From: an uncultured cyanobacterium | GTDB taxonomy: Bacteria > Cyanobacteriota > Cyanobacteriia > Pseudanabaenales > Pseudanabaenaceae | DNA: 64,000 bases | Reading direction: 5' to 3' | NCBI GenBank assembly: GCA_963703315.1 | Contig: OY969811.1 | Span: 1,024,001-1,088,000 of the forward strand | In this document: piece by piece, positions 33,661-44,356 of the stretch | How the letters are laid out: each line of letters starts with the position of its first letter | How positions within the stretch are numbered: the first letter of the stretch is position 1 | Program-made: the position numbers and the translations under genes | The notes under the pieces: model-generated | The model's database searches: none | What the model saw: the letters and a program-made list of their open reading frames with translations, nothing else | Told to the model about the DNA's origin: nothing

Positions 33661-33878
33661 GCAGTGCCACTGAACCTATGTAAATCTATATCATTTCTAT
33701 GATTTCTAGTTTAATCGCGATCGAACTAATTATGAGGGTTTTTCCTCAGGCAATGGTTTTTCAAATTTTGTCCTACCTTGCCATAGCTCTCACCATTTCA
33801 TCCTTAAATCGGCGAAAATACCAGAGTATATCAATTTACTGAAGATTGGTATGAGTGTAACTCAGGTAGCTTGGCGAT

Positions 33879-34316
33879 TTAGTCCATTTTCTTTTTAGCT
33901 GCTGTTGATGGATATCGGTTATTTTCGATGAGTATTTGGCGCTCTAAAATACGATCTGCATCATTAAAATCAAGAATTCTTGCGGTAACTTCGCCGATGT
34001 CTGTAGTTGGTTGAATTATCGCTCCATCTAGTTGAAAATGTTCTCTCCATGAGTCTCGGCGAGGGTTGAAGAATCTGACTAGTTCTCCGTTTCGCCAATT
34101 AATTGAGCCTAGATCTGTGCCTTTTTGCAGGTTACAGAATAGGCAAGCATAGCAAAGATTTTCGGCTGTCGAGTCACCGCCATGTTTTACACTAATGATG
34201 TGGTCAACTTGGCAAGATGGCGTATTTTCTTCTGCAATCAGGCAATACTCACATGAATAATCTGCACGTTGTGCAACTAAGCGCCGCAACTCAGCCCTAA
34301 TGTAAGATCGAGGCAT
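33879..34316 (-). CDS. HNH endonuclease (putative toxin)
   Basis: CEYC...VDHIISVKHGG...NLCYACLFCNLQKG; FNPRRDSW. Confidence 0.88.
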   Translation of the reverse strand: MPRSYIRAELRRLVAQRADYSCEYCLIAEENTPSCQVDHIISVKHGGDSTAENLCYACLFCNLQKGTDLGSINWRNGELVRFFNPRRDSWREHFQLDGAIIQPTTDIGEVTARILDFNDADRILERQILIENNRYPSTAAKKKMD

Positions 34317-34578
34317 TTTCTTTAATTCCAGTGTCGATATATTTGTAGGCTTTAGCTTTAGCGAGTCTGAGGATATGTTCTAATACTAAATATTTCTCTA
34401 ATTCTCTTTTATCTTCTTTTGTAAGTTCATTGTTTTTAGCACCGTGAACTAAATCCTCTAGGCGCTCTTGTGCGGCTTCAGAAAGATGGAAGTCGATTAC
34501 GCTCTGGGGAGTTGTGCCAGATGCAATGAAGTCAACAATTTCATCGTAAACTTTGATGGTTTTAGTGGCTGTGTTCAT
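34297..34578 (-). CDS. Small helical protein coupled to the HNH gene (putative antitoxin)
   Basis: YDEIVDFIA...AQERLEDL...LEHILRLAKAKA; 20-nt overlap with the HNH gene. Confidence 0.65.
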   Translation of the reverse strand: MNTATKTIKVYDEIVDFIASGTTPQSVIDFHLSEAAQERLEDLVHGAKNNELTKEDKRELEKYLVLEHILRLAKAKAYKYIDTGIKENASILH

Positions 34579-34652
34579 AGCTAGGTTCTGATTATGATCC
34601 TTGTGGCGATCTGATTATATCATCAGAGCTTTTGGTAATCATTTGCTGTAAT

Positions 34653-34868
34653 TCATGCGTACATCAACCGTCCTTTGGGTGTGGGGATGATTCTTCCTAA
34701 CATTTTTGCTGTTTCTATCCATTCTTGAATAATGATCTCGGCGTTGGCTACGGCTTCAGCATAGCTTTGTCCATCTGCCATGCAACCTGCAAGTTCAGGA
34801 ATTTCAACGATGAACGCATCATCTGATTCACTCCAATAAACAATTAGTTCGTATTTAATTGGTGTCAT
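34653..34868 (-). CDS. HicB-family antitoxin (no adjacent HicA)
   Basis: YWSESDDAFIVEIPELAGCMADGQSYAEAVAN...WIETAK...IPTPKG. Confidence 0.9.
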   Translation of the reverse strand: MTPIKYELIVYWSESDDAFIVEIPELAGCMADGQSYAEAVANAEIIIQEWIETAKMLGRIIPTPKGRLMYA

Positions 34869-35268
34869 TTTCTTTCTGTGGTTCTTGGCTTATTATTTGT
34901 TGAATTTCTTGGCAAATTTTTTCTAGCAAAGGAGCATCTGAAGCAACTACATTATCTTCAATGCGATCGTGTTTGTGATGGGGAAATGTTGATAGATTTA
35001 GCTTTTGATGGTGAGGAGCATTGTCATAGCGAAAAATTAGATCTCCTTCTTTACTCATGTATTGATAGGTATACTTGCCTCTATCAATGGATATTTCTAC
35101 ATCAACAAATTCTCGGATATGCAGTAATGAGCCATCATTAAAATAGATATTGCCTCTAATGAAGCCGAGTGTATCTGTACGGGTTTCTGTCTCAAGTTCA
35201 AATCTTTGAGTAATTGCAAGATTGGAAAGTACATTTCTGATTTCTGCAAAATAATTATCAATCAACAA
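34855..35268 (-). CDS. DUF6516-like putative toxin
   Basis: FNDGSLLHIRE, YTYQY, FRYDNAPHH...TFPHHKH. Confidence 0.8.
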   Translation of the reverse strand: MLIDNYFAEIRNVLSNLAITQRFELETETRTDTLGFIRGNIYFNDGSLLHIREFVDVEISIDRGKYTYQYMSKEGDLIFRYDNAPHHQKLNLSTFPHHKHDRIEDNVVASDAPLLEKICQEIQQIISQEPQKENDTN

Positions 35269-35548
35269 ATTCGATCTCCTTGATGATTGCTTGTTTTTGC
35301 TGTAATTTCTCTAACATCCAAGCTTCGCCTAGCCATTCATCAAAATCTAGGCTATGTTGTAATTGATCGTTGGTGAAAAGGTTAATAAAATTTTCGGTTG
35401 ACCAATGATATTGGGTTTCAAACTGGGTTAGTTTTTGGTGTGTGGTTTGTATTGCTGCTTCAATGCTTTGCAACCTTTTAGCAAGGTCACTTTCGATCAT
35501 TTCTTTGATAGATTCTGGATGACTAGATCTTAATTTCAGTACATTCAT
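35258..35548 (-). CDS. Putative antitoxin partner of the DUF6516-like gene (probable start MNVLK at 35548)
   Basis: LTQFETQYHWSTENF...DFDEW motif; overlaps the toxin start. Confidence 0.65.
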   Translation of the reverse strand: MNVLKLRSSHPESIKEMIESDLAKRLQSIEAAIQTTHQKLTQFETQYHWSTENFINLFTNDQLQHSLDFDEWLGEAWMLEKLQQKQAIIKEIEFVD

Positions 35549-35646
35549 ATTTTTTAGCCTAATCCTATGTCCTAAAATAGCATCAACCAACAAAACTCAA
35601 AAAATTTACATTTTCCTTTTACCCTTTTCCTTTTTCCTTGATCGCC

Positions 35647-35868
35647 CTAGGCAGCAACTAATTGTCTTTCTTGGATAGGGTGATGGTATAAAACCATTAA
35701 CTGTCTTTCTGTTAGGGTTTCGATCGCATAGGCTCTTCCATTGAGGTCGCTAAATTCGACTTCAAAGACTTTAGGTTCGTAAACTTCTACAATTGTGCCA
35801 ACTTGTCCTCGATATAAATGGCAATTGGGGACATCTTCTAAGAGTGCGACTACATCCAATAATTTCAT
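35647..35868 (-). CDS. DUF4926-domain protein (probable start MKLLDVV at 35868)
   Basis: LLDVVALLED...RGQVGTIVEVY...FEVEFSD..GRAYA. Confidence 0.85.
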   Translation of the reverse strand: MKLLDVVALLEDVPNCHLYRGQVGTIVEVYEPKVFEVEFSDLNGRAYAIETLTERQLMVLYHHPIQERQLVAA

Positions 35869-35887
35869 AATAGAATCTTTTTTTCTG

Positions 35888-36142
35888 TTAGTAGGCATCT
35901 TTACGATGACTGACACTTAGCAATAATACAATTAGCTCTCTGTCTTTAATTTCGTAGATAATGCGATAGTCTCCAACTCTGACACGATAGGTATTGTCGT
36001 AGCCTTTAAGCTTTTTAACTCCGTTCGGACGCGGATCGTCGGCTAGAGAGCGCAATGTCACAATCAAGCGATCGCGTTCAATTTTTGAGATGTTATCTAG
36101 CTGCTTTTGGGCTGGTTTAGGGATAACGATCTGATAGCTCAT
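35888..36142 (-). CDS. RelE/ParE-family toxin
   Basis: AQKQL...DPRPNGVKKLKG...YRVRVGDYRIIYEI...HRKDAY. Confidence 0.92.
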   Translation of the reverse strand: MSYQIVIPKPAQKQLDNISKIERDRLIVTLRSLADDPRPNGVKKLKGYDNTYRVRVGDYRIIYEIKDRELIVLLLSVSHRKDAY

Positions 36143-36348
36143 GCTTGATTTGCCTCGTATTGATCGAGGGTTAGATAATCACCTGAGAGATAGGCTGTTT
36201 GGGAAGAGAGAATATTTTCTTTTTCTTCTGAGGTTATTTCCTCTTCTACATAGCGAGATTTGAGAAACAATACAAAGTCAAGGGTTTCTGCTAATAGGGA
36301 TTCAGAAATATTTTCGACTTCTTGAATTAACTTTTCTTTGATAGTCAT
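36139..36348 (-). CDS. Putative antitoxin (DUF2281-like)
   Basis: KEKLIQEVE...LAETLDFVLFLK; ATGA overlap with the RelE gene. Confidence 0.7.
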   Translation of the reverse strand: MTIKEKLIQEVENISESLLAETLDFVLFLKSRYVEEEITSEEKENILSSQTAYLSGDYLTLDQYEANQA

Positions 36349-36378
36349 TGTTTTTTGCGATCGGTTTGTCTTTTTATT

Positions 36379-39300
36379 TTACATTGCCTCACGGATCGGC
36401 TGAAGCCAACTGATCGCATTTTGAGTTGTCGGATGCTCTGTGCCAAGTTTTTGTTCGTAAATTTGGATGGCGCGTTGGATGGATTGTAGGGCTTGGGGAT
36501 GACGTTGGGTATTGTGATAGAGGACGGCTAAGTTGAGTAGACTGGTGGCGACAGAGGGATGGTCTGCTCCTAGTTGTCGTTCATTGATTTCGAGCGATCG
36601 CAGATAGAGAGGTTCGGCTTCGCTGTACTTCCCTTGCGATTCGTAAAGTGATGCGAGATTGTTGAGACTGGTGGCGACAGAGGGATGGTCTGCTCCTAGT
36701 TGGCGTTCCCTGATCGAGAGCGATCGCAGATAGAGAGGTTCGGCTTCGCTGTACTTTCCTTGCGATTCGTAAAGATTTGCGAGATTGTTGAGACTGGAAG
36801 CGAGATCGGGATGGTCTGCTCCTAGTTTTTGTTCTCCGATTTCGAGTGATCGCACATAGAGTGGTTCACTTTCGCTGTACTTCCCTTGTACTTGGTAAAG
36901 TAATGCTAGATTGTTGAGACCAGCGGCAACAGAGGGATGGTCTGCTCCTAGTTGGCATTCCCATATCGAGAGCGATCGCACATACAGTGGTTCAGCTTCG
37001 CTGTACTTCCCTTGTACTCGGTAAAGTGATGCCAGATTGTTGAGAGTTTGGGCGACATCGGGATGGTCTGCTCCTAATTTTCGTTCCCCGATTTCGAGTG
37101 ATTGCAGATAGAGGGGTTTGGCTTCGCTGTATTTCCCTTGCGATTCGTAAAGATTTGCGAGATTGTTGAGACTGATGGCAACATCGGGATGGTCTGCTCC
37201 TAGTTGCCGTTCCCTAATCGAGAGCGATCGCACATAGAGTGGTTCGGCTTCGCTGTATTTCCCTTGCGATTCGTAAAATAATGCAAGATTGTTGAGACTG
37301 CTGGCAACAGAGGGATGTTCCGATCCTAGTTGGCGATCGTTGATCGAGAGCGATCGCACTAAAAGTGGCTCGGCTTCACTGTACCTCCCTTGCGCTCGAT
37401 AAAGTTGTGCAAGATTGTTTAGACTGTTGGCGAAATCGGGATTGTCTTCTCCTAGTTGGCGCTCGTTGATCGAGAGTGATCGCAGATAGAGAGGTTCGGC
37501 TTCGCTGTACTTCCCTTGCGCTTGATAAAGTTCTGCAAGATTGTTTAGACTGTTGGCGACATCGGGATTGTCTTCTCCCAGTTGGCGTTCCCTGATTTCG
37601 AGCGATCGCAGATAGAGAGGTTCAGCTTCGCTGTAATTCCCTTGCGCTCGATAAAGTTGTGCAAGACCGTTGATACTGTTGGCGACATCGGGATTGTCTT
37701 CTCCTAGTTGGCGTTCCCTGATTTCGAGCGATCGCAGATGGAGAGGTTCGGCTTCGCTGTATTTCCCTTGCGATTGGTAGACCACAGCTAAACTATTCAC
37801 GCTATTTGCGACATCAATATGGTTTTTACCAAGTCGCTCCTCTTTAATGGCGATCGCTCGAAGAAATATTTGTTCTGCTTCAACATACATTCCTTGTAGT
37901 CGATATAGTCTTGCTAATGAATGTAAATAATCTGACAGGGTGAGAGAACTACCTTTAGTCGTAGCAATCTTAACGGCTTCTTTGGCAGTGATAATTCCAT
38001 CTTGATATTTATTCAATTTATCAAAAACTTGAGAGATTGTATGGAGATAACCCGCCAAAATCATACTGTTCTCAGGCAAAGCCACCCGCGCTTGCTCGAT
38101 CGCCCTCTGATAACCCTTAATCGCCTCACCAAAATAATTTTGAGCAGCCCCAGATTCACCCTTAGCCAAAGCCGCCTTAGCCCGATCATGGGTACTTTGC
38201 GCTTGACGATAGGTTGCCTCAAAAATTGGTGCTTGGTTTAACCGAAAACTACCACCAATGAGATTATTTTTTTGCAGTTTATAGGCACTGACTAAAGCAG
38301 GATTTGTAACGGATTTGAGCCGATCTTCCACAAATTTTTGAGCCGATGCAAAATGTGGGCGGAAGGGTTGCCATGCTGTCACCAGATCCCAAGCCGCAAA
38401 CGCAGGAATCTCATTAGCGCGATCGCTCAGTCCCCGTAACCATGCATCTTGCCAACCCTCGCGATCAAATCCATCCCATTGCATAGCAAAAAACTCATGA
38501 ATTAACCGATGCAAGCGATAGGTTTTACCCTCATCCACACTTTGAATCAGAGTCCTTGTCCGCAAATCAATTTCGGCTTTAGTCAGATTCCGAATTGGCA
38601 CAAAAGCTGGTTGATTCGGCTCCGCAGGTTTCCCTAAAAATGGTAATAGCCCCCTCACCAACTGCCCCAACGAATCCCAAAACCTTTGCCACCAACTTTT
38701 GCGAACAATCGGCGCTGCTGACGGTTGCGGATAGGAACGCACCACCGCCTCCACCAACTCCCAAGGCAAATTGATCGGTTCAAACAAACTCAAAACCCGC
38801 CCTAATTGCTGTGCATCAGGTGACAACTGTTGCCAACTCACCGTAATTACCGCCTTCAAACCCTGCTTAATGTTTTTACTAGCATCAATATTTTCAGGAG
38901 CTTCGGCAATTGGTTCCAATACTTCACTTGCCAGCCCTTCTTGTTCCAATTTAGCGATCGCCTTCGGCAAAGTATCTTGGGTAATCTTCAACCAATTCCC
39001 CACCAAAGTCAGCGCTAAGGGCAAACATCCCAAGCGATCGCAAAGACTTCTGGCAAGCTCAGGATGATCAAGCACCGTTTGCTGATTTGGTTCCGCCCAT
39101 TTTGTCAATACCTGCACCGCCGCTTCAGTCTCCAATTCCTGAATTTCATGCACTGCCAAATTACCGCGCAACTGCGATCGCGAAGTCAGCACAAACCGAA
39201 ACGGACAGCGATCGCCTGAAATCTTTGGTAAATAGGGCGCAACTTGCTCATGATAATTCGTCACATCATCAATAACGATCAGCGCCAATCGCTCCGCACC

Positions 39301-39882
39301 ACAAAATTTTTGCCATGCTTGCCAACCTTCTTCTACCTGTGCTTCTAAAGTTCTCAAATACCGTAAATCGCGATCTTCAGAAAACCGCGACTGCATAAAA
39401 TCCCTGAGATCTTCTCCAAAATGCGCTACATCAAAAATCCCAACCCCACCCACATAATCATTCAGATGCAATTTGCCATACTGCCGCACCAGTTCACTTT
39501 TACCTACACCTGCCATGCCCACAATTAGCACAGTCGGTAAATGTCCCACTTGCTCAGATTGCGCTTGCAACAACCCATGTAGTTTATCTAAGTCAGCCTC
39601 ACGCCCCACAAAATTGCCATTGCGATCAATCTCGCGATCCCCTAGATTGTTATAAAAGCTTTGGTCATGGGTGAACTTTTCCGATTGAAGATCATTTGTG
39701 CGATCGCCGACAATCAAAGTGCCAATATTTACAGTACTTCCAGATTGAGGAACCACCCCAATTTTGTCAGCAATTTTATTCGGCTCATGATGAATCTCTT
39801 GGGAGATATTCGCATTGACATCACCACCAGCCGTGACATTTTCAAGCGCTGTTTGCTTGTTTTGCGGATCTTGTTCAGCCAT
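36379..39882 (-). CDS. NLR-like STAND protein: short N-terminal motifs + NB-ARC + about 12 TPR (42-aa) repeats
   Basis: FVGRE, GMAGVGKS Walker A, LIVIDDV Walker B, LTSR, GCLPLAL, YRLHRLI (MHD-like); repeated HPxVAxSLNNLAxLYxxQGKYSEAEPLY. Confidence 0.92.
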   Translation of the reverse strand: MAEQDPQNKQTALENVTAGGDVNANISQEIHHEPNKIADKIGVVPQSGSTVNIGTLIVGDRTNDLQSEKFTHDQSFYNNLGDREIDRNGNFVGREADLDKLHGLLQAQSEQVGHLPTVLIVGMAGVGKSELVRQYGKLHLNDYVGGVGIFDVAHFGEDLRDFMQSRFSEDRDLRYLRTLEAQVEEGWQAWQKFCGAERLALIVIDDVTNYHEQVAPYLPKISGDRCPFRFVLTSRSQLRGNLAVHEIQELETEAAVQVLTKWAEPNQQTVLDHPELARSLCDRLGCLPLALTLVGNWLKITQDTLPKAIAKLEQEGLASEVLEPIAEAPENIDASKNIKQGLKAVITVSWQQLSPDAQQLGRVLSLFEPINLPWELVEAVVRSYPQPSAAPIVRKSWWQRFWDSLGQLVRGLLPFLGKPAEPNQPAFVPIRNLTKAEIDLRTRTLIQSVDEGKTYRLHRLIHEFFAMQWDGFDREGWQDAWLRGLSDRANEIPAFAAWDLVTAWQPFRPHFASAQKFVEDRLKSVTNPALVSAYKLQKNNLIGGSFRLNQAPIFEATYRQAQSTHDRAKAALAKGESGAAQNYFGEAIKGYQRAIEQARVALPENSMILAGYLHTISQVFDKLNKYQDGIITAKEAVKIATTKGSSLTLSDYLHSLARLYRLQGMYVEAEQIFLRAIAIKEERLGKNHIDVANSVNSLAVVYQSQGKYSEAEPLHLRSLEIRERQLGEDNPDVANSINGLAQLYRAQGNYSEAEPLYLRSLEIRERQLGEDNPDVANSLNNLAELYQAQGKYSEAEPLYLRSLSINERQLGEDNPDFANSLNNLAQLYRAQGRYSEAEPLLVRSLSINDRQLGSEHPSVASSLNNLALFYESQGKYSEAEPLYVRSLSIRERQLGADHPDVAISLNNLANLYESQGKYSEAKPLYLQSLEIGERKLGADHPDVAQTLNNLASLYRVQGKYSEAEPLYVRSLSIWECQLGADHPSVAAGLNNLALLYQVQGKYSESEPLYVRSLEIGEQKLGADHPDLASSLNNLANLYESQGKYSEAEPLYLRSLSIRERQLGADHPSVATSLNNLASLYESQGKYSEAEPLYLRSLEINERQLGADHPSVATSLLNLAVLYHNTQRHPQALQSIQRAIQIYEQKLGTEHPTTQNAISWLQPIREAM
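36530..37800. repeat. 126-bp tandem repeats encoding ten near-identical TPR units
   Basis: Exact 126-nt period (register 36594, 36720 ... 37728). Confidence 0.9.
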
Positions 39883-39897
39883 GCTAAATTCCCTTTA

Positions 39898-40853
39898 TAG
39901 CTATAGCCAGCTAGGTTAGGACATAAAATAGAAAGAAACTGAGACATCTGAGCAACAACAATGCCAAAACCATATAGTTACGATTTGCGTCAAAAGGTAA
40001 TGCAAGCAATCGAAATGGATGGACTGAAGAAAAATGAAGCCAGTCAATTGTTCGGGATTAGTCGAAACACAATCAACTTGTGGTTTGAGAGACGGGAAGA
40101 AACAGGAGATATAACCGTAAAGGCAAGAGCATCGTCTAGTCAGAAGCCCAAAATTAGCGACTGGGAAAAGTTTCGAGAATTTGTCAAAGAGCATGAGGAT
40201 AAGACCCAAGCAGAGATGGCAGAATTATGGGGAAATATCAGTCAAAGGTCTATATCACGAGCGTTAAAACAGATAGGATTTACCCGTAAAAAAAAACTTA
40301 TGGTTATCGGGAACGAGATGAAGAAAAACGTAATGAGTTTCGCACAGCCTTAGGCGATCCAAAAGCATCCCACTTAGTTTACGTTGATGAATCAGGGATG
40401 GATGAACGTGATAATTATGGATATGGATGGTCTGCAAAAGGTGAGCGAATTCATGGACTCAAAGCAGGTCGTCGTCAGGGACGTATTAATATGATTGCGG
40501 GATATCGAGATGGACAACTAATTGCCCCCTTTACAATTAAAGGCTGTTGCAACCGCAACGTATTTGAAATCTGGTTAGAATCTTGCTTGATTCCAACTCT
40601 CAAGGCTGGGCAATGGGTAATTATCGATAATGCTACTTTCCATCATGGTGGACGCATTCAGGATTTGATAGCAGCAGCAGGATGTAAGGTCGTCTATTTA
40701 CCTCCATATTCTCCAGACCTTAATCGCATTGAGAAATGTTGGGCTTGGCTCAAATCTCGTATTCGTAAACTCCTACGCAATTCAGCTAATCTTCATGATG
40801 CTATTGACTCCGTTCTTGCCCTTGCTGCGTCCTAACTTGACTGGCTATAGCTA
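39898..40853 (+). mobile_element. IS630-family insertion sequence, 956 bp, TA target duplication
   Basis: TIRs TAGCTATAGCCAGCTAGGTTAGGAC / GTCCTAACTTGACTGGCTATAGCTA (22/25 match); TA at 39896-39897 and 40854-40855. Confidence 0.93.
39961..40835 (+). CDS. IS630 transposase in two frames joined by a -1 frameshift at the A9 run (40288-40296)
   Basis: ORF A MPKPYSYDLRQKV (HTH); the -1 frame continues KKTYGYRERDEEKR...YVDESG, IIDNATFH, LPPYSPDLNRIEKCW (DDE). Confidence 0.9.
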
Positions 40854-40868
40854 TATCTTGATTGGATA

Positions 40869-41180
40869 TCAACTAGCAGAATATTTTGCGCGGCTTTGCT
40901 CATATAAACTCGCCACAGAAATATGCGTTAAATAAAACTCTTCACCTTCCGAATCGCGCAAAGCATCCACATAAGCATCAATCCCACGCGGTTTTGGTAA
41001 CTCATCGACATCGGCAAGATGTAAAACCAACGCCGATCGCATCAGCTTTGTCGTTTCTTCCAAAGTCTCACCCGTAGCAATACAACCCGCCACATCAGGT
41101 GAATATGCTGAAAACCCAGTGTCACTTTTTTCTAAGACGATGAGATATTGGTCAATCATTTCGCGTACTTTTGTGGTCAT
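40869..41180 (-). CDS. HicB-like antitoxin
   Basis: YLIVLEKSDTGFSAYSPDVAGCIATGETLEET. Confidence 0.85.
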   Translation of the reverse strand: MTTKVREMIDQYLIVLEKSDTGFSAYSPDVAGCIATGETLEETTKLMRSALVLHLADVDELPKPRGIDAYVDALRDSEGEEFYLTHISVASLYEQSRAKYSAS

Positions 41181-41401
41181 GATTCCCTTAAAAGTTCTTC
41201 TACCGTCAAACCAATATCGCGAGCAATCTGACGTAACAAAGTCGGTGAAATATCCCGTCCCTTATGACATGGAACCGTAGTACCTCGTCCATCCGCATGA
41301 CGAAACTGCTTATGCGATCCTCTTTGTCTCACTTCCACAAAACCAAGATTTTCTAGCAATCGAATAACTTGCTGCGGTTTAAGGACAGGAATATTACCCA
41401 T
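41177..41401 (-). CDS. HicA-family toxin
   Basis: LENLGFVEVRQRGSHKQFRH...TTVPCH...LLRQIARD. Confidence 0.92.
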   Translation of the reverse strand: MGNIPVLKPQQVIRLLENLGFVEVRQRGSHKQFRHADGRGTTVPCHKGRDISPTLLRQIARDIGLTVEELLRES

Positions 41402-41421
41402 AATTTTATTTGCCTATTGAT

Positions 41422-41631
41422 TTAGGCGATCGCAATTAACTGAGTGCCGACAAACTCTGACTGCGGTGGAATCACGTCTTCTTCTAAAAGCATCGCAATT
41501 ACTTCTTGCAAATTCTCACGCAACTCATCTAGAGTCTCTCCTTGAGAATGTGCGCCCACAAATGAAGGGACATAACCCACATATAGGTTAGTGTCTACAT
41601 CTTTTTCAATAACAGCAGTAAATACCTTCAT
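41422..41631 (-). CDS. HicB-like antitoxin (short)
   Basis: FTAVIEKD...YVGYVP...GAHSQGETLDELRENLQEVI. Confidence 0.88.
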   Translation of the reverse strand: MKVFTAVIEKDVDTNLYVGYVPSFVGAHSQGETLDELRENLQEVIAMLLEEDVIPPQSEFVGTQLIAIA

Positions 41632-41654
41632 AAAATCCTCTGTAAAAAACTGAA

Positions 41655-42074
41655 TTACATATTGAACGTTGCAATATCCGCCTTGCCACCACTTTGCACC
41701 ACAATACCAATTTTTTCGGCTAACTTGTTGGGATTCTGAGATTTTGGCTGGCTCAGTTGTAATTGCAAAGCCTCAACCTTAGCCGCTAGCTCTTTATTGC
41801 TAGATAAAAGCGATCGCACCTCATCCAACAACTTCACCACATCAGGATCATCAGCGATCACCTCTACATCAATCACCGCCTGTCCAGCATCAAAAGCTTC
41901 ACCCGCACTAATCGCTTTTACAGTCTGCGTATTTGGAGCCTTACGACTGAGAACAGACCAAAGCGATCTCGCCAGCTTCACCGTCTCATCGGTAATATTT
42001 TCGCCAACCTTAGTGAGAGAACCAGTGCCAACAATTACCAACAAACCCACAATTAAAGAAGAAACTGGCTCCAT
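41655..42074 (-). CDS. Bell/HeLo-like small helical protein with a C-terminal motif shared with the NLR N-terminus (putative amyloid-activated effector)
   Basis: Hydrophobic N-terminal helix MEPVSSLIVGLLVIVGTGSLTKVGE; C-terminal PNKLAEKIGIVVQSGGKADIATF vs NLR PNKIADKIGVVPQSGSTVNIGTL. Confidence 0.7.
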   Translation of the reverse strand: MEPVSSLIVGLLVIVGTGSLTKVGENITDETVKLARSLWSVLSRKAPNTQTVKAISAGEAFDAGQAVIDVEVIADDPDVVKLLDEVRSLLSSNKELAAKVEALQLQLSQPKSQNPNKLAEKIGIVVQSGGKADIATFNM

Positions 42075-42111
42075 ATTTACACCAATAATTTAGGAATACT
42101 TTGATTTTAAC

Positions 42112-42546
42112 TCACACATTACTACTAGAAACTAAAGCGATCGCCTCTTGAATAATGCGATCGCGATCGACCATTTCCCCTAACTCCACCGATTCATAAT
42201 GTCCACCGAACGCCTCACCCGCAGCAGCATCTAACGCAATGTCATAGGCATCTTCCAAAGCCTCGCGTAGTTCTGAAGGTTCGCAATAATTTCCTTTAGC
42301 CTTACGCCGTTGGTTAGTACGCTGAATTTCTCGTACCGAATTTTTAATTGAAAGATCCCCCGATCTTGTAGTGCGATTTTCGGCACGTTGTTTGATCAGA
42401 TGGAGTAGCAAGATTTTGGCAAAGCTATATATCTTATTCAGCTTGTCATCCTTGCTCATCTCTGTCATCTCTTCCACTATCAGCAAGGCATCGGAGATAT
42501 TGCCACTGAGCAAAAATGCCTTTAGTTCTAACAACTCTTCCATCAC
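42112..42546 (-). CDS. DUF29-family protein
   Basis: EEMTEMSKDDKLNKIYS...LLLHLIK...RTTRSGDLSI...EDAYDIALDAAAGEA. Confidence 0.75.
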   Translation of the reverse strand: MMEELLELKAFLLSGNISDALLIVEEMTEMSKDDKLNKIYSFAKILLLHLIKQRAENRTTRSGDLSIKNSVREIQRTNQRRKAKGNYCEPSELREALEDAYDIALDAAAGEAFGGHYESVELGEMVDRDRIIQEAIALVSSSNV

Positions 42547-42699
42547 CTAAGCCTTCTGTGTTAAATCACCCAAATCCATATCACCTGTTACCTTGACATT
42601 CTTCAGCATCGTCTGCTCGACCGAGCCGCTAACCGATAGAGCTGTTTGCTTCATTGATTTTGCTCGAAGGTTTACGCCATCAATATCACTAGCTATCAC
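42547..42699 (-). other. Unannotated 50-codon ORF or 3' gene remnant made of two beta-rich pseudo-repeats that resemble the NLR's first N-terminal motif
   Basis: Manual translation from GTG: VIASDIDGVNLRAKSMKQTALSVSGSVEQTMLKNVKVTGDMDLGDLTQKA*; its stop abuts the DUF29 start. Confidence 0.55.
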
Positions 42700-42726
42700 T
42701 GGTACAATTTTAGGCGCAATTGTAGA

Positions 42727-43458
42727 TTAAACCCGTCGCCGTAGCCAGAAAAGCGAAATTAAGATCAGTCCTGTGAGCAACCCGTAGATTGCACCAATTA
42801 CAAATGTCAAAAAATATCCCAGATGCTTATCAAGCAGAAAAATACCTACTTGCAAAGTGAGATACCAACTAATTGTCGTGCCAACCATCCACCAGTCCGC
42901 TAGTTGAGAATAGGGCTTGAGAATGATCGATTGGGCTATGCCTGTGGTCAAACCACGTAAACAGCTATAGATCGTTAGAAATTCAACCGCATCACCATAG
43001 GTAAGTACTAGCTGCCAACTTGCCCAAGAACTCAGCGTACCGCCCAAAGTGCCGCCGATCCATGTTGCCCATAGCCATCCCATACCGAAGATGTAGTTTC
43101 GGATGACTAACCATTGAGCAAGGGCGATCGCCATACTCATCACAGCAAAAGTTAGCAAAATATTCAGATTGCCTTGCACATAGTCAACCACAAAAAAGCT
43201 GATGATGCCGCCTATAGAATAACTAATGGCATTTGCCACAATCCACAGGGGCAGAAAATTCCAGTGTGGTTTTCCTATGGCTAGCTCTTTTGTCTTAAAC
43301 TTTACTCTAAGTCGTTCCAACAAAATTTGAGCCTCATTAATGAGAAGACTATACTTTTTACTACCAGGAACCACAAATAAATTTGCCTGTGGGGGCTTAT
43401 GGGCAGAGCTAAAAACCCTAAAACTAGTGCAGCAAGTTTGCCCTGCGGAGGTAGTCAC
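42727..43458 (-). CDS. Hypothetical multi-pass membrane protein (true start probably downstream of 43340)
   Basis: About six hydrophobic segments with repeated AQW/AQS...W motifs; the ORF-track N-terminus overlaps the divergent glycosyltransferase and is probably over-extended. Confidence 0.6.
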   Translation of the reverse strand: MTTSAGQTCCTSFRVFSSAHKPPQANLFVVPGSKKYSLLINEAQILLERLRVKFKTKELAIGKPHWNFLPLWIVANAISYSIGGIISFFVVDYVQGNLNILLTFAVMSMAIALAQWLVIRNYIFGMGWLWATWIGGTLGGTLSSWASWQLVLTYGDAVEFLTIYSCLRGLTTGIAQSIILKPYSQLADWWMVGTTISWYLTLQVGIFLLDKHLGYFLTFVIGAIYGLLTGLILISLFWLRRRV

Positions 43459-44356
43459 CTATCGCCAACGCGAACCAGAGCATTTATGGCTAGATGATCT
43501 TCTAGACTCCAATAATAGCCGTCATCATTTAGATGATGCGATTTTTGTAATGAGTTGGGGCTTTGATGTTCCTAAGTTGGCGGCGAAGTTAAAGTCTTTC
43601 AATACTATTTATCACGCGCATAGCGCCGAGTATGGATTTCATCTCCCTGCCACTGTGCCAATTATTACAGTCAGTCGTAATACTCTTGGTTATTGGGGAC
43701 AGCGATCGCCACACTCCTTACTGTACTATTTGCCCAATGAGATTTCTGATAAGTTCCAAAACTGGCAACGCGATCGCAATATCGATGTCTTAGTACAGGC
43801 AAGAAAATCCTCTAGCTATTTAATCAATCAATTGATTCCAGCTTTGCAAAAAAAATGTCGCGTGGAAGTAATCGATTACTATGTTGAGGATTTAGAATCA
43901 CTATTCAATCGTGCTAAAGTCTATCTCTACGACTCAGCCGAATATTGGGCAGTGCAGGGAGTTACGGAAGGATTTGGACTACAACCGATGGAAGCGCTTG
44001 CCTGTGGCTGTCAAGTTTTTTCTAGTGTCAATCATGGCTTATCGGACTACTTAGACCCTGCGTTTAACTGCTATAAAATCGCAGGTTATTCTCAAGAATT
44101 TGATTTGCAACGGATTCTTAAAGCAATCCAGAGCGATCGCCCGTTGTCTCTATCAACATCCGTCTTATCAGAATATCGTGCGGAAAATATTATTCAGCGC
44201 TTGCAGATAATTTTAGAAGAGGTAAATGAATTTTTTGATCATAAGCAATGCTATCGCGGTAATATTCCTGACCTAGATTATTGGCAAATCACCAAACTGC
44301 GATCGCAAAGATTATTGGCTAAACTCAAACAGCGATTACAACGCAAACCTGTGTAA
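43340..44356 (+). CDS. Glycosyltransferase (GT-B / group 1-like)
   Basis: GGLWAE N-terminus; EGFGLQPMEALACGC (Ex7E) motif. Confidence 0.82.
   Translation: MRRLYFLLPGTTNKFACGGLWAELKTLKLVQQVCPAEVVTYRQREPEHLWLDDLLDSNNSRHHLDDAIFVMSWGFDVPKLAAKLKSFNTIYHAHSAEYGFHLPATVPIITVSRNTLGYWGQRSPHSLLYYLPNEISDKFQNWQRDRNIDVLVQARKSSSYLINQLIPALQKKCRVEVIDYYVEDLESLFNRAKVYLYDSAEYWAVQGVTEGFGLQPMEALACGCQVFSSVNHGLSDYLDPAFNCYKIAGYSQEFDLQRILKAIQSDRPLSLSTSVLSEYRAENIIQRLQIILEEVNEFFDHKQCYRGNIPDLDYWQITKLRSQRLLAKLKQRLQRKPV

Follow-up and report, generated by a model that had tools for sequence, protein, structure and literature searches.

A 50-codon open reading frame (ORF) upstream of a two-motif NOD-like receptor (NLR) gene in an uncultured cyanobacterium is most likely the 3′ stump of an effector gene. 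The stretch of DNA analyzed here, hereafter the window, spans 64,000 nt (positions 1,024,001 to 1,088,000 of contig OY969811.1, assembly GCA_963703315.1), and the database names of homologues put the genus as Pseudanabaena. Its minus strand encodes an NLR of 1167 aa (36379..39882), an intact putative effector of the Bell type with 139 aa (Bell-A; 41655..42074), and the short ORF with a GTG start (42547..42699; 153 nt, 50 aa). A first-pass annotation, whose quoted ORF peptide and NLR residues 9-29 both match the translation of the DNA, had proposed that the NLR carries two tandem signaling motifs, each with its own partner upstream, and that the ORF is either the remnant of a second effector or an amyloid microprotein without an effector domain. 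We found that the ORF corresponds to the last 50 codons of a second Bell gene, Bell-B, including its two-repeat C-terminal amyloid-type motif. With a probability of roughly 0.88, the ORF represents the 3′ stump of a Bell-B gene, for a cell-death effector, cut at the edge of an inserted defense island and not a gene in its own right. The tandem arrangement on the NLR is, as judged from its sequence relatives, a real variation on Bell/NLR amyloid signaling. Bell-A (the intact gene of the window), Bell-B (the cut gene) and motifs A, B and C are labels of this analysis.

The search for homologues covered 36 congeners plus 24 further genomes from the class, and its query was the region read through the TAA codon upstream of the ORF, with this codon translated as X. 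In 12 of the 36 congeners, the segment that corresponds to the ORF aligned with the C-terminal end of a frame of 163-186 aa, and broken copies were present in two more. The identity was 84-90% over 49-50 aa at 10 loci, nine of which have 166-186-aa frames and one of which (L026) is frameshifted with a 96-aa frame, and 60-62% to three further congener frames. The Bell-B proteins of congeners are ~150-165 aa long, start with MEPV or MEPI, and contain an N-terminal MEP-type hydrophobic helix within a ~105-aa helical domain and the two-repeat motif at the C-terminus. Their N-domains are 62-90% identical to that of Bell-A in the window, the difference being confined to the C-terminal motif. A DUF29 gene is located directly 3′ of Bell-B in 11 of 14 loci (L014-L027), and an NLR with a B-pattern N-terminal motif follows downstream in L014, L017, L018, L019, L021, L022, L023, L024 and L026. 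These congener receptors are NB-ARC/TPR proteins with a single copy of this type of motif at the N-terminus. Thus, relatives in which a full-length effector ends in the ORF sequence beside an NLR, which the first-pass annotation had suggested looking for, do occur in congeners. No second copy of Bell-B was found in this genome by genome-wide searches. Because the whole Bell N-domain is missing and only the last 50-59 codons are left, we regard the ORF as the remnant of a member of the Bell/NLR system and not as a member.

The remnant is located at one end of an inserted island of ~9.07 kb (33663..42730), whose flanks adjoin in 10 of 11 congener loci. The distance between the ABC-F gene, which ends at 33662 in the window, and the core membrane-protein gene, whose sequence begins at ~42738, is 54-201 bp in 10 of the 11 congener loci (L003-L012) but 9,075 bp in the window. 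According to Pfam, the island carries HNH, HicB-like, TumE, DUF4926, ParE, DUF2281, NLR, IS630, HicAB, Bell-A and DUF29 genes in addition to the Bell-B remnant. The core homology to congeners extends from ~42738 upward in coordinates, the DNA homology to the congener Bell-B/DUF29 cassette covers window positions 42101-42728 and then ends, and the core sequence gives way to the Bell-B sequence in the alignment at the junction. These limits of homology, together with the spacing of the flanks, place the stump exactly at the island edge. The Bell-B leftover amounts to the last 59 codons, starting exactly at the core/island joint, and consists of the ORF and a start-less 5′ part of linker codons (42700..42728, minus strand) that extends to the core-DNA junction. 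On the other side, the stop codon of the ORF (TAG at 42547-42549) abuts the GTG-ATG of the DUF29 gene (42112..42546, minus strand), as the first-pass annotation had noted.

The same junction is bridged by three metagenome contigs from two other studies, which differ from the window by 4 in 721 nt (X2), 22 in 752 nt (X3) and 30 in 417 nt (X4), and the truncation is therefore common to diverged lineages. The ancestral island may have carried Bell-B, DUF29, Bell-A and toxin-antitoxin (TA) genes followed by the NLR gene, and the 5′ part of Bell-B would have been lost at or after insertion of the island. The full-length Bell-B genes of congeners and the cut at the island junction support the first of the two earlier suggestions, namely that a second effector was lost at the island edge and left its 3′ end behind.

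The NLR combines an NB-ARC NTPase and TPR repeats (Pfam NB-ARC, E 1.7e-8; AAA_16; TPR_12, E 1.5e-185) with an N-terminus that carries motifs B and A in this order. Motif B covers aa 9-28 (39799..39858, minus strand) and ranks first genome-wide with a profile of congener NLR motifs. Motif A covers aa 34-56 (39715..39783, minus strand) and matches the C-terminus of Bell-A, which scores 70 against NLR aa 32-60 (0 of 2000 shuffles), as well as the N-terminus of a distant CHAT protein described below. The two motifs are different from each other, as their profiles showed no significant likeness by hhalign (E 0.37). Of 23 database relatives, 17 have the B+A module, which occurs on at least four different NLR bodies; within the genus, 12 of 48 genomes encode it. 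The linker between B and A has a fixed length of six residues in all 17 module-bearing database NLRs. The first-pass annotation was thus correct in assigning two different tandem motifs to this N-terminus, and the pair is conserved. Among the closest relatives of the NLR, that of L021 (80% identity) has B+A and that of L019 (76% identity) has B only. The module lies internally, behind an extra domain of ~100 aa, in three NLR bodies (P0009, P0010 and P0012) and also in L051:5717-8941. A second NB-ARC/TPR NLR with a B+A-type N-terminus is encoded in this genome at ~38.8-41.2 kb (L053:5940-8333), with no Bell gene within 5.9 kb upstream.

We surveyed the cis partners of tandem NLRs at 18 loci; L050 and L055 were left out as too short. 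Intact Bell-A is the partner at seven loci (the window, L028, L030, L032, L034, L035 and L058), intact Bell-B at L021, a B-like Bell at L038, and a stump only at L037, while the DNA examined holds no cis partner at L048, L049, L051, L052, L053, L054, L057 and L059. Depending on the genome, the Bell next to a tandem NLR is Bell-A, Bell-B or the B-like type, and a receptor wired to two channels is plausible. A further arrangement is seen at L016, where Bell-B, DUF29 and a second Bell with motif C precede an NLR with motif C only. As to the earlier proposal that each motif has its own partner upstream, it holds in the window for motif A, which is matched by intact Bell-A; for motif B the upstream partner is present only as a vestige, and its Bell domain is gone.

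Outside the window, at genome position ~3.746 Mb, we identified a 345-aa CHAT-EAD9 protein (L063:1631-2665) composed of motif A at the N-terminus, CHAT (Pfam E 1.9e-8), motif B and EAD9 (Pfam E 1.5e-7). No other motif B in the genome matches the window NLR as well as that of this protein (score 79, 0 of 2000 shuffles), and its N-terminal motif A scores 47 against NLR motif A (0 of 2000 shuffles). The two motifs are ~230 residues apart and flank its domain. Behind the CHAT-EAD9 gene lies the gene for a TPR protein of 427 aa, the N-terminus of which is similar to the EAD9 coil. In congeners, for example at L064, caspase- or CHAT-like proteins with motif B adjoin STAND NTPases that start with motif B. 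By motif comparison, the intact matching partners of the NLR in this genome are the adjacent Bell-A for motif A and the distant CHAT-EAD9 protein for both motifs.

Motifs of all three kinds are combined in proteins of ~150-173 aa encoded behind Bell-A, which consist of a 95-aa N-domain and tandem motifs B, A and C (L062:1005-1517, L060:1940-2458 and, on the minus strand, L029:7495-7944). In L029 and L062, the B+A+C protein stands between the Bell-A gene and, beyond HicAB genes, an NLR with motif C only, two partners that otherwise have no common motif. The full B+A+C tail occurs in eleven database clusters, and the 95-aa N-domain is also fused to TIGR02391/Ymh, CHAT and EAD9 domains. Among the 48 genus genomes, the B+A+C protein was found in one (G033, which contains L029). 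These proteins are candidate amyloid adaptors.

By the paradigm of HET-S/NWD2 and Bell/BASS, activation and oligomerization of the NLR would allow its N-terminal motifs to fold into an amyloid template, which would convert effectors with a matching motif. Motif A would drive the membrane-targeting Bell-A, and motifs A and B together would drive the CHAT protein. We tentatively consider, at well below even odds, that the motifs form a combinatorial amyloid address code, in which B+A lets one NLR fire both Bell-A and CHAT-EAD9, the B+A+C proteins are adaptors, and the stump is the fossil of a third output. The pore-type Bell-A would then respond via A and the CHAT-EAD9 protease via A and B, and the B+A+C proteins of ~170 aa would act as adaptors between channels.

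Alternatively, the B+A unit of the NLR may be one composite amyloid nucleus, in which the two motifs form two rungs of a single β-solenoid as the two HET-s repeats do; an effector would need a match to one rung only, and the second motif would stabilize the template. This is possible but doubtful. The six-residue linker fixed in 17 database NLRs and the fact that B and A travel together between NLR bodies are in line with a single unit, as is the observation that motif A never stood alone on an NLR in the loci and matches examined. In addition, several complete genomes with a tandem NLR and Bell-A show no Bell-B with these queries (G006 has a single Bell match), the Bell-B tail itself has two repeats, and double or triple pseudo-repeats are mentioned in the preprint 10.1101/2020.01.06.895854. 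On the contrary, motif B occurs alone on the NLRs paired with Bell-B in L014, L017-L019, L022-L024 and L026, tandem NLRs adjoin Bells that match the first motif only in L021 and L038, and comparison of the two motif profiles gave no significant likeness. Since A and B are ~230 residues apart in the CHAT protein, they form no contiguous unit there.

Several observations weigh against the view that the ORF is a decayed Bell effector gene of this receptor. The best local alignment between the ORF and NLR aa 1-80 covers 15 aa with a BLOSUM62 score of 36, which was reached by 88 of 5000 shuffles of the ORF against NLR aa 1-80 and by 3 of 2000 shuffles of NLR aa 6-31 against the ORF, and this pairwise similarity is marginal when taken alone. 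A profile of the last Bell-side repeat recovered the short ORF at E 4.4e-15 but did not reach the NLR N-terminus at E<=10. No locus among those surveyed has both Bell-A and Bell-B intact upstream of a tandem NLR, and the proposed ancestral state is thus unobserved. The frame of the stump is still open in X2, X3 and X4, lineages up to ~7% diverged, and X4 differs by 3 in 115 nt in the ORF part versus at least 17 in 264 nt in the membrane gene, both being small hand counts; therefore some constraint or gene conversion is possible. The summed ratio of non-synonymous to synonymous changes (pN/pS) was 0.198 when the window was one member of the pair and 0.105 between congeners, a contrast based on 50 codons and on related, non-independent pairs. 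Amyloid formation and signaling in this system are proposed by analogy.

The assignment of these effectors to the Bell type relies on sequence features and has no convincing structural counterpart. Bell-A has an MEPVS N-terminus, a helical domain of ~107 aa and motif A at the C-terminus, and its profile collected 207 relatives, most of which start with MEP or MDP. Neither Pfam nor NCBIfam gave a match to Bell-A, the published Bell hidden Markov model being absent from both. In the AlphaFold2 model (pLDDT 72), helices are predicted from 4-16 to 94-108, and the tail is poorly predicted. Foldseek detected no match of this model in the PDB at E<=0.001 (best E 1.8), comparison by VIA gave a best Z of 5.9, in a range common for helical bundles (ZAR1 chain, Z 4.2), and a sequence search against solved structures returned coiled-coil noise only.

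The first-pass annotation had offered, besides the remnant, an effector-less amyloid microprotein acting as an adaptor or decoy. The ORF would then be a working motif-only protein that serves the motif-B channel as decoy, buffer or adaptor, uses its GTG start and is perhaps coupled to DUF29. The frame open here and in X2, X3 and X4 would agree with such a protein, and a public protein collection lists its exact 50-aa product as a gene-caller prediction (P0115). Pfam and NCBIfam scans assigned no family to it. Relatives do hold multi-motif proteins without a Bell domain, and two further motif-only Bell stumps precede NLR-system genes. However, in intact Bell-B the codon that corresponds to this GTG is an internal Val codon, and the homology continues upstream to the junction. 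At four columns where 12 congener genes (11 full-length and one frameshifted) otherwise agree, the window peptide has a private substitution, whereas those genes have 0-2 each, and its pN/pS is about twice that of congener pairs. A scan of 41500-43600 found promoter-like and terminator-like sites in counts not above those of shuffles and none adjoining the ORF, leaving the ORF without a site that marks it off. Moreover, the ORF matches the NLR motif with a score of 36, as compared with 79 for the CHAT protein. These results make the microprotein improbable.

The two further stumps, L037:4050-4184 (44 aa, motif A) and L027:8066-8182 (38 aa, motif B), are each located directly behind an unrelated gene and ahead of NLR-system genes, at junctions. 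The three stumps differ in length and break point, as expected from deletions, and the pattern fits deletions that inactivate a toxic effector and spare the downstream genes. The Bell-B stump in the window is probably co-transcribed with DUF29, and its product, if translated at all, would be a by-product.

The likeness between the ORF and NLR aa 9-29 could also be a matter of chance, with the ORF unrelated to the NLR system. The weak pairwise significance and the failure of the Bell-side profile to reach the NLR would be explained in this way. To the contrary, in at least nine loci the full-length orthologues, which are Bell proteins, precede NLRs that show this motif pattern, and the NLR-side profile places the ORF frame second or third when all stop-to-stop frames of this genome with 30 aa or more (71,160) are ranked. 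The NLR-side profiles were built from congener NLR motifs only, in versions of five and nine sequences, the former being a subset of the nine NLRs. With five sequences, the window NLR ranked first (E 1.7e-4), directly ahead of the short-ORF frame (E 0.0041); with nine, the window NLR was again first (E 0.0016), the distal CHAT protein came second (E 0.018), and third place went to the short-ORF frame (E 0.056). Mere chance is therefore very improbable. The similarity claimed by the first-pass annotation is marginal in the shuffle controls but is backed by the congener loci and the NLR-side profile, and with these comparative data we take it to be real. The additional match that the annotation had seen in a shared KQTAL is a coincidence, as 12 of 12 congener Bell-B genes have P in place of the L of the window. 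One related metagenome contig also has P at this position, and the L of the window is a private P-to-L change of the lineage.

The core membrane-protein gene beyond the junction (42727..43338, minus strand, start not fixed) ends with a TAA at 42727-42729 and is outside the NLR system. Its product belongs to no Pfam or NCBIfam family, and homologues in 24 of the 36 congeners match query residues 4-215 at E<=1e-42. In this strain, the membrane gene is in frame with the remnant across the single TAA. In the alignment, this TAA stands opposite either a Gln codon (CAA or CAG) in the intact Bell-B genes or the stop codon of the core gene itself. We rejected the idea that both frames are one gene read through the TAA, encoding a membrane effector with a C-terminal amyloid motif: despite the shared phase and the aligned Gln codon, the match to the membrane protein ends at residue 196-206 in 23 of the 24 congeners and at 215 in G006 (with one TGA inside), none of the 24 strongly matching congeners has a same-frame match to the motif tail behind it, X3 and X4 lack the common phase owing to one extra nucleotide behind 42725, and an in-phase arrangement has a 1 in 3 chance.

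All genes of the system are collinear on the minus strand. The stop codon of the ORF is 2,665 bp and that of Bell-A 1,773 bp upstream of the NLR start, so that both are within 5 kb of the NLR, with the HicAB genes and an IS630-family element intervening. The DUF29 gene (Pfam DUF29, E 1.7e-5) is a conserved neighbor downstream of Bell-B. DUF29 genes occur on one or both sides of Bell genes in L014-L022, L026, L027, L030, L031 and L035, often with abutting stop and start codons, and the repeated copies could serve as recombination substrates for swaps of Bell cassettes. Between Bell-A and the NLR, Pfam identified the TA genes HicB-like (41422-41631), HicA (41177-41401) and HicB (40869-41180), all on the minus strand, and the same HicB-like/HicA genes are located ahead of tandem NLRs in L021, L037, L054, L057 and L059. 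The IS630-family element (39896..40855, plus strand) lies 13 bp upstream of the NLR start and contains HTH_Tnp_IS630 and DDE_3 ORFs between 27-nt inverted repeats at 39896-39922 and 40829-40855. It sits between the effector/TA genes and the receptor and may uncouple their expression.

Downstream of the NLR, the island carries genes for an HNH endonuclease, a HicB-like protein, the TumE toxin, DUF4926, the ParE toxin and DUF2281 (33879-36348). At other chromosomal sites, part of this cargo also lies behind the NLRs of L014 and L019, indicating that the unit moves. Elsewhere in the genome of the window, at ~2.970 Mb, a third-system Bell gene with a D-type motif is followed by a matching NLR (L039:3870-4515). 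This Bell gene is split into frames of 57 aa and 158 aa that repeat ~35 residues, which looks like a duplication with a frameshift, and the DUF29 gene ahead of it is likewise in two pieces.

In the usual picture of amyloid templating between NLRs and effectors, one motif family serves each receptor-effector pair. This picture is changed by a conserved two-motif receptor module that is mobile between NLR bodies, by an effector with both motifs, and by triple-motif proteins located between an otherwise non-matching receptor and effector. As a set, they would open the specificity, cross-talk and adaptor function of prokaryotic amyloid signaling to direct tests with short peptides. The stump itself is of less importance. 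It indicates that a receptor can retain its motif when the matching Bell effector gene has decayed, and it cautions against reading motif-bearing mini-ORFs at island edges as genes. Our literature search found no description of tandem heterotypic amyloid signaling motifs in bacteria, although Table S2 of the preprint by Dyrka et al. may list these pairs. On this basis, the composite motif wiring appears to be a new variant of Bell/NLR amyloid signaling.

Bell/NLR pairs with the motifs BASS1-10 were described in that preprint (Dyrka et al., 10.1101/2020.01.06.895854), where 'Pseudoanabaena' is among the genera with matches. As in the BASS pairs, a small protein with a predicted helical domain is encoded here within 5 kb of a collinear NB-ARC/TPR NLR, its C-terminal motif of ~20-25 aa recurs at the NLR N-terminus, and filamentous cyanobacteria are the host group. 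Unlike the BASS pairs, the NLR carries two different tandem motifs, the type of cis partner varies by genome, the partner of motif B is a 3′ stump only, and TA genes, a DUF29 gene and an IS element separate effector and NLR, whereas the typical spacing given for the published pairs is 10 bp or less (10.1101/2020.01.06.895854). The antiphage system Bab/Agp of E. coli (10.1101/2024.11.07.622273) likewise combines an N-terminal hydrophobic helix of the 'MEPIS' type, described for Bab, Bell and Hell domains, that is cupped by helices with a C-terminal amyloid motif common to the neighboring sensor, and Bell-A starts with MEPVS. The Bab domain is shorter (~80 aa), its sensor is not an NB-ARC/TPR NLR, and a single motif is described there.

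Among fungal systems, HET-S/NWD2 of Podospora anserina is similar in that the N-terminal repeat of the receptor templates the C-terminal prion-forming domain of the effector, which has two pseudo-repeats (PMC7889193), as the Bell-B tail appears to have. NWD2 has one repeat of one family, unlike the receptor here, whose two unrelated motifs are known from sequence alone. In a gene cluster of Chaetomium globosum, the PNT1 NLR is reportedly linked to two effectors that both share the single PP motif of the NLR. By that account, PNT1 differs from the present receptor, which has two different motifs. The PP motif was characterized in this three-gene cluster (PMC7889193). The nearest statement in the literature concerns the combined NLR19+NLR34 of Tuber melanosporum, in which two different classes of amyloid-like motif occupy one NLR N-terminus as they do here (PMC9815663). 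That fungal case comprises five highly homologous sequences and is presented in the passage cited without partner analysis, whereas the B+A module recurs on several NLR bodies and in proteins of two other types.

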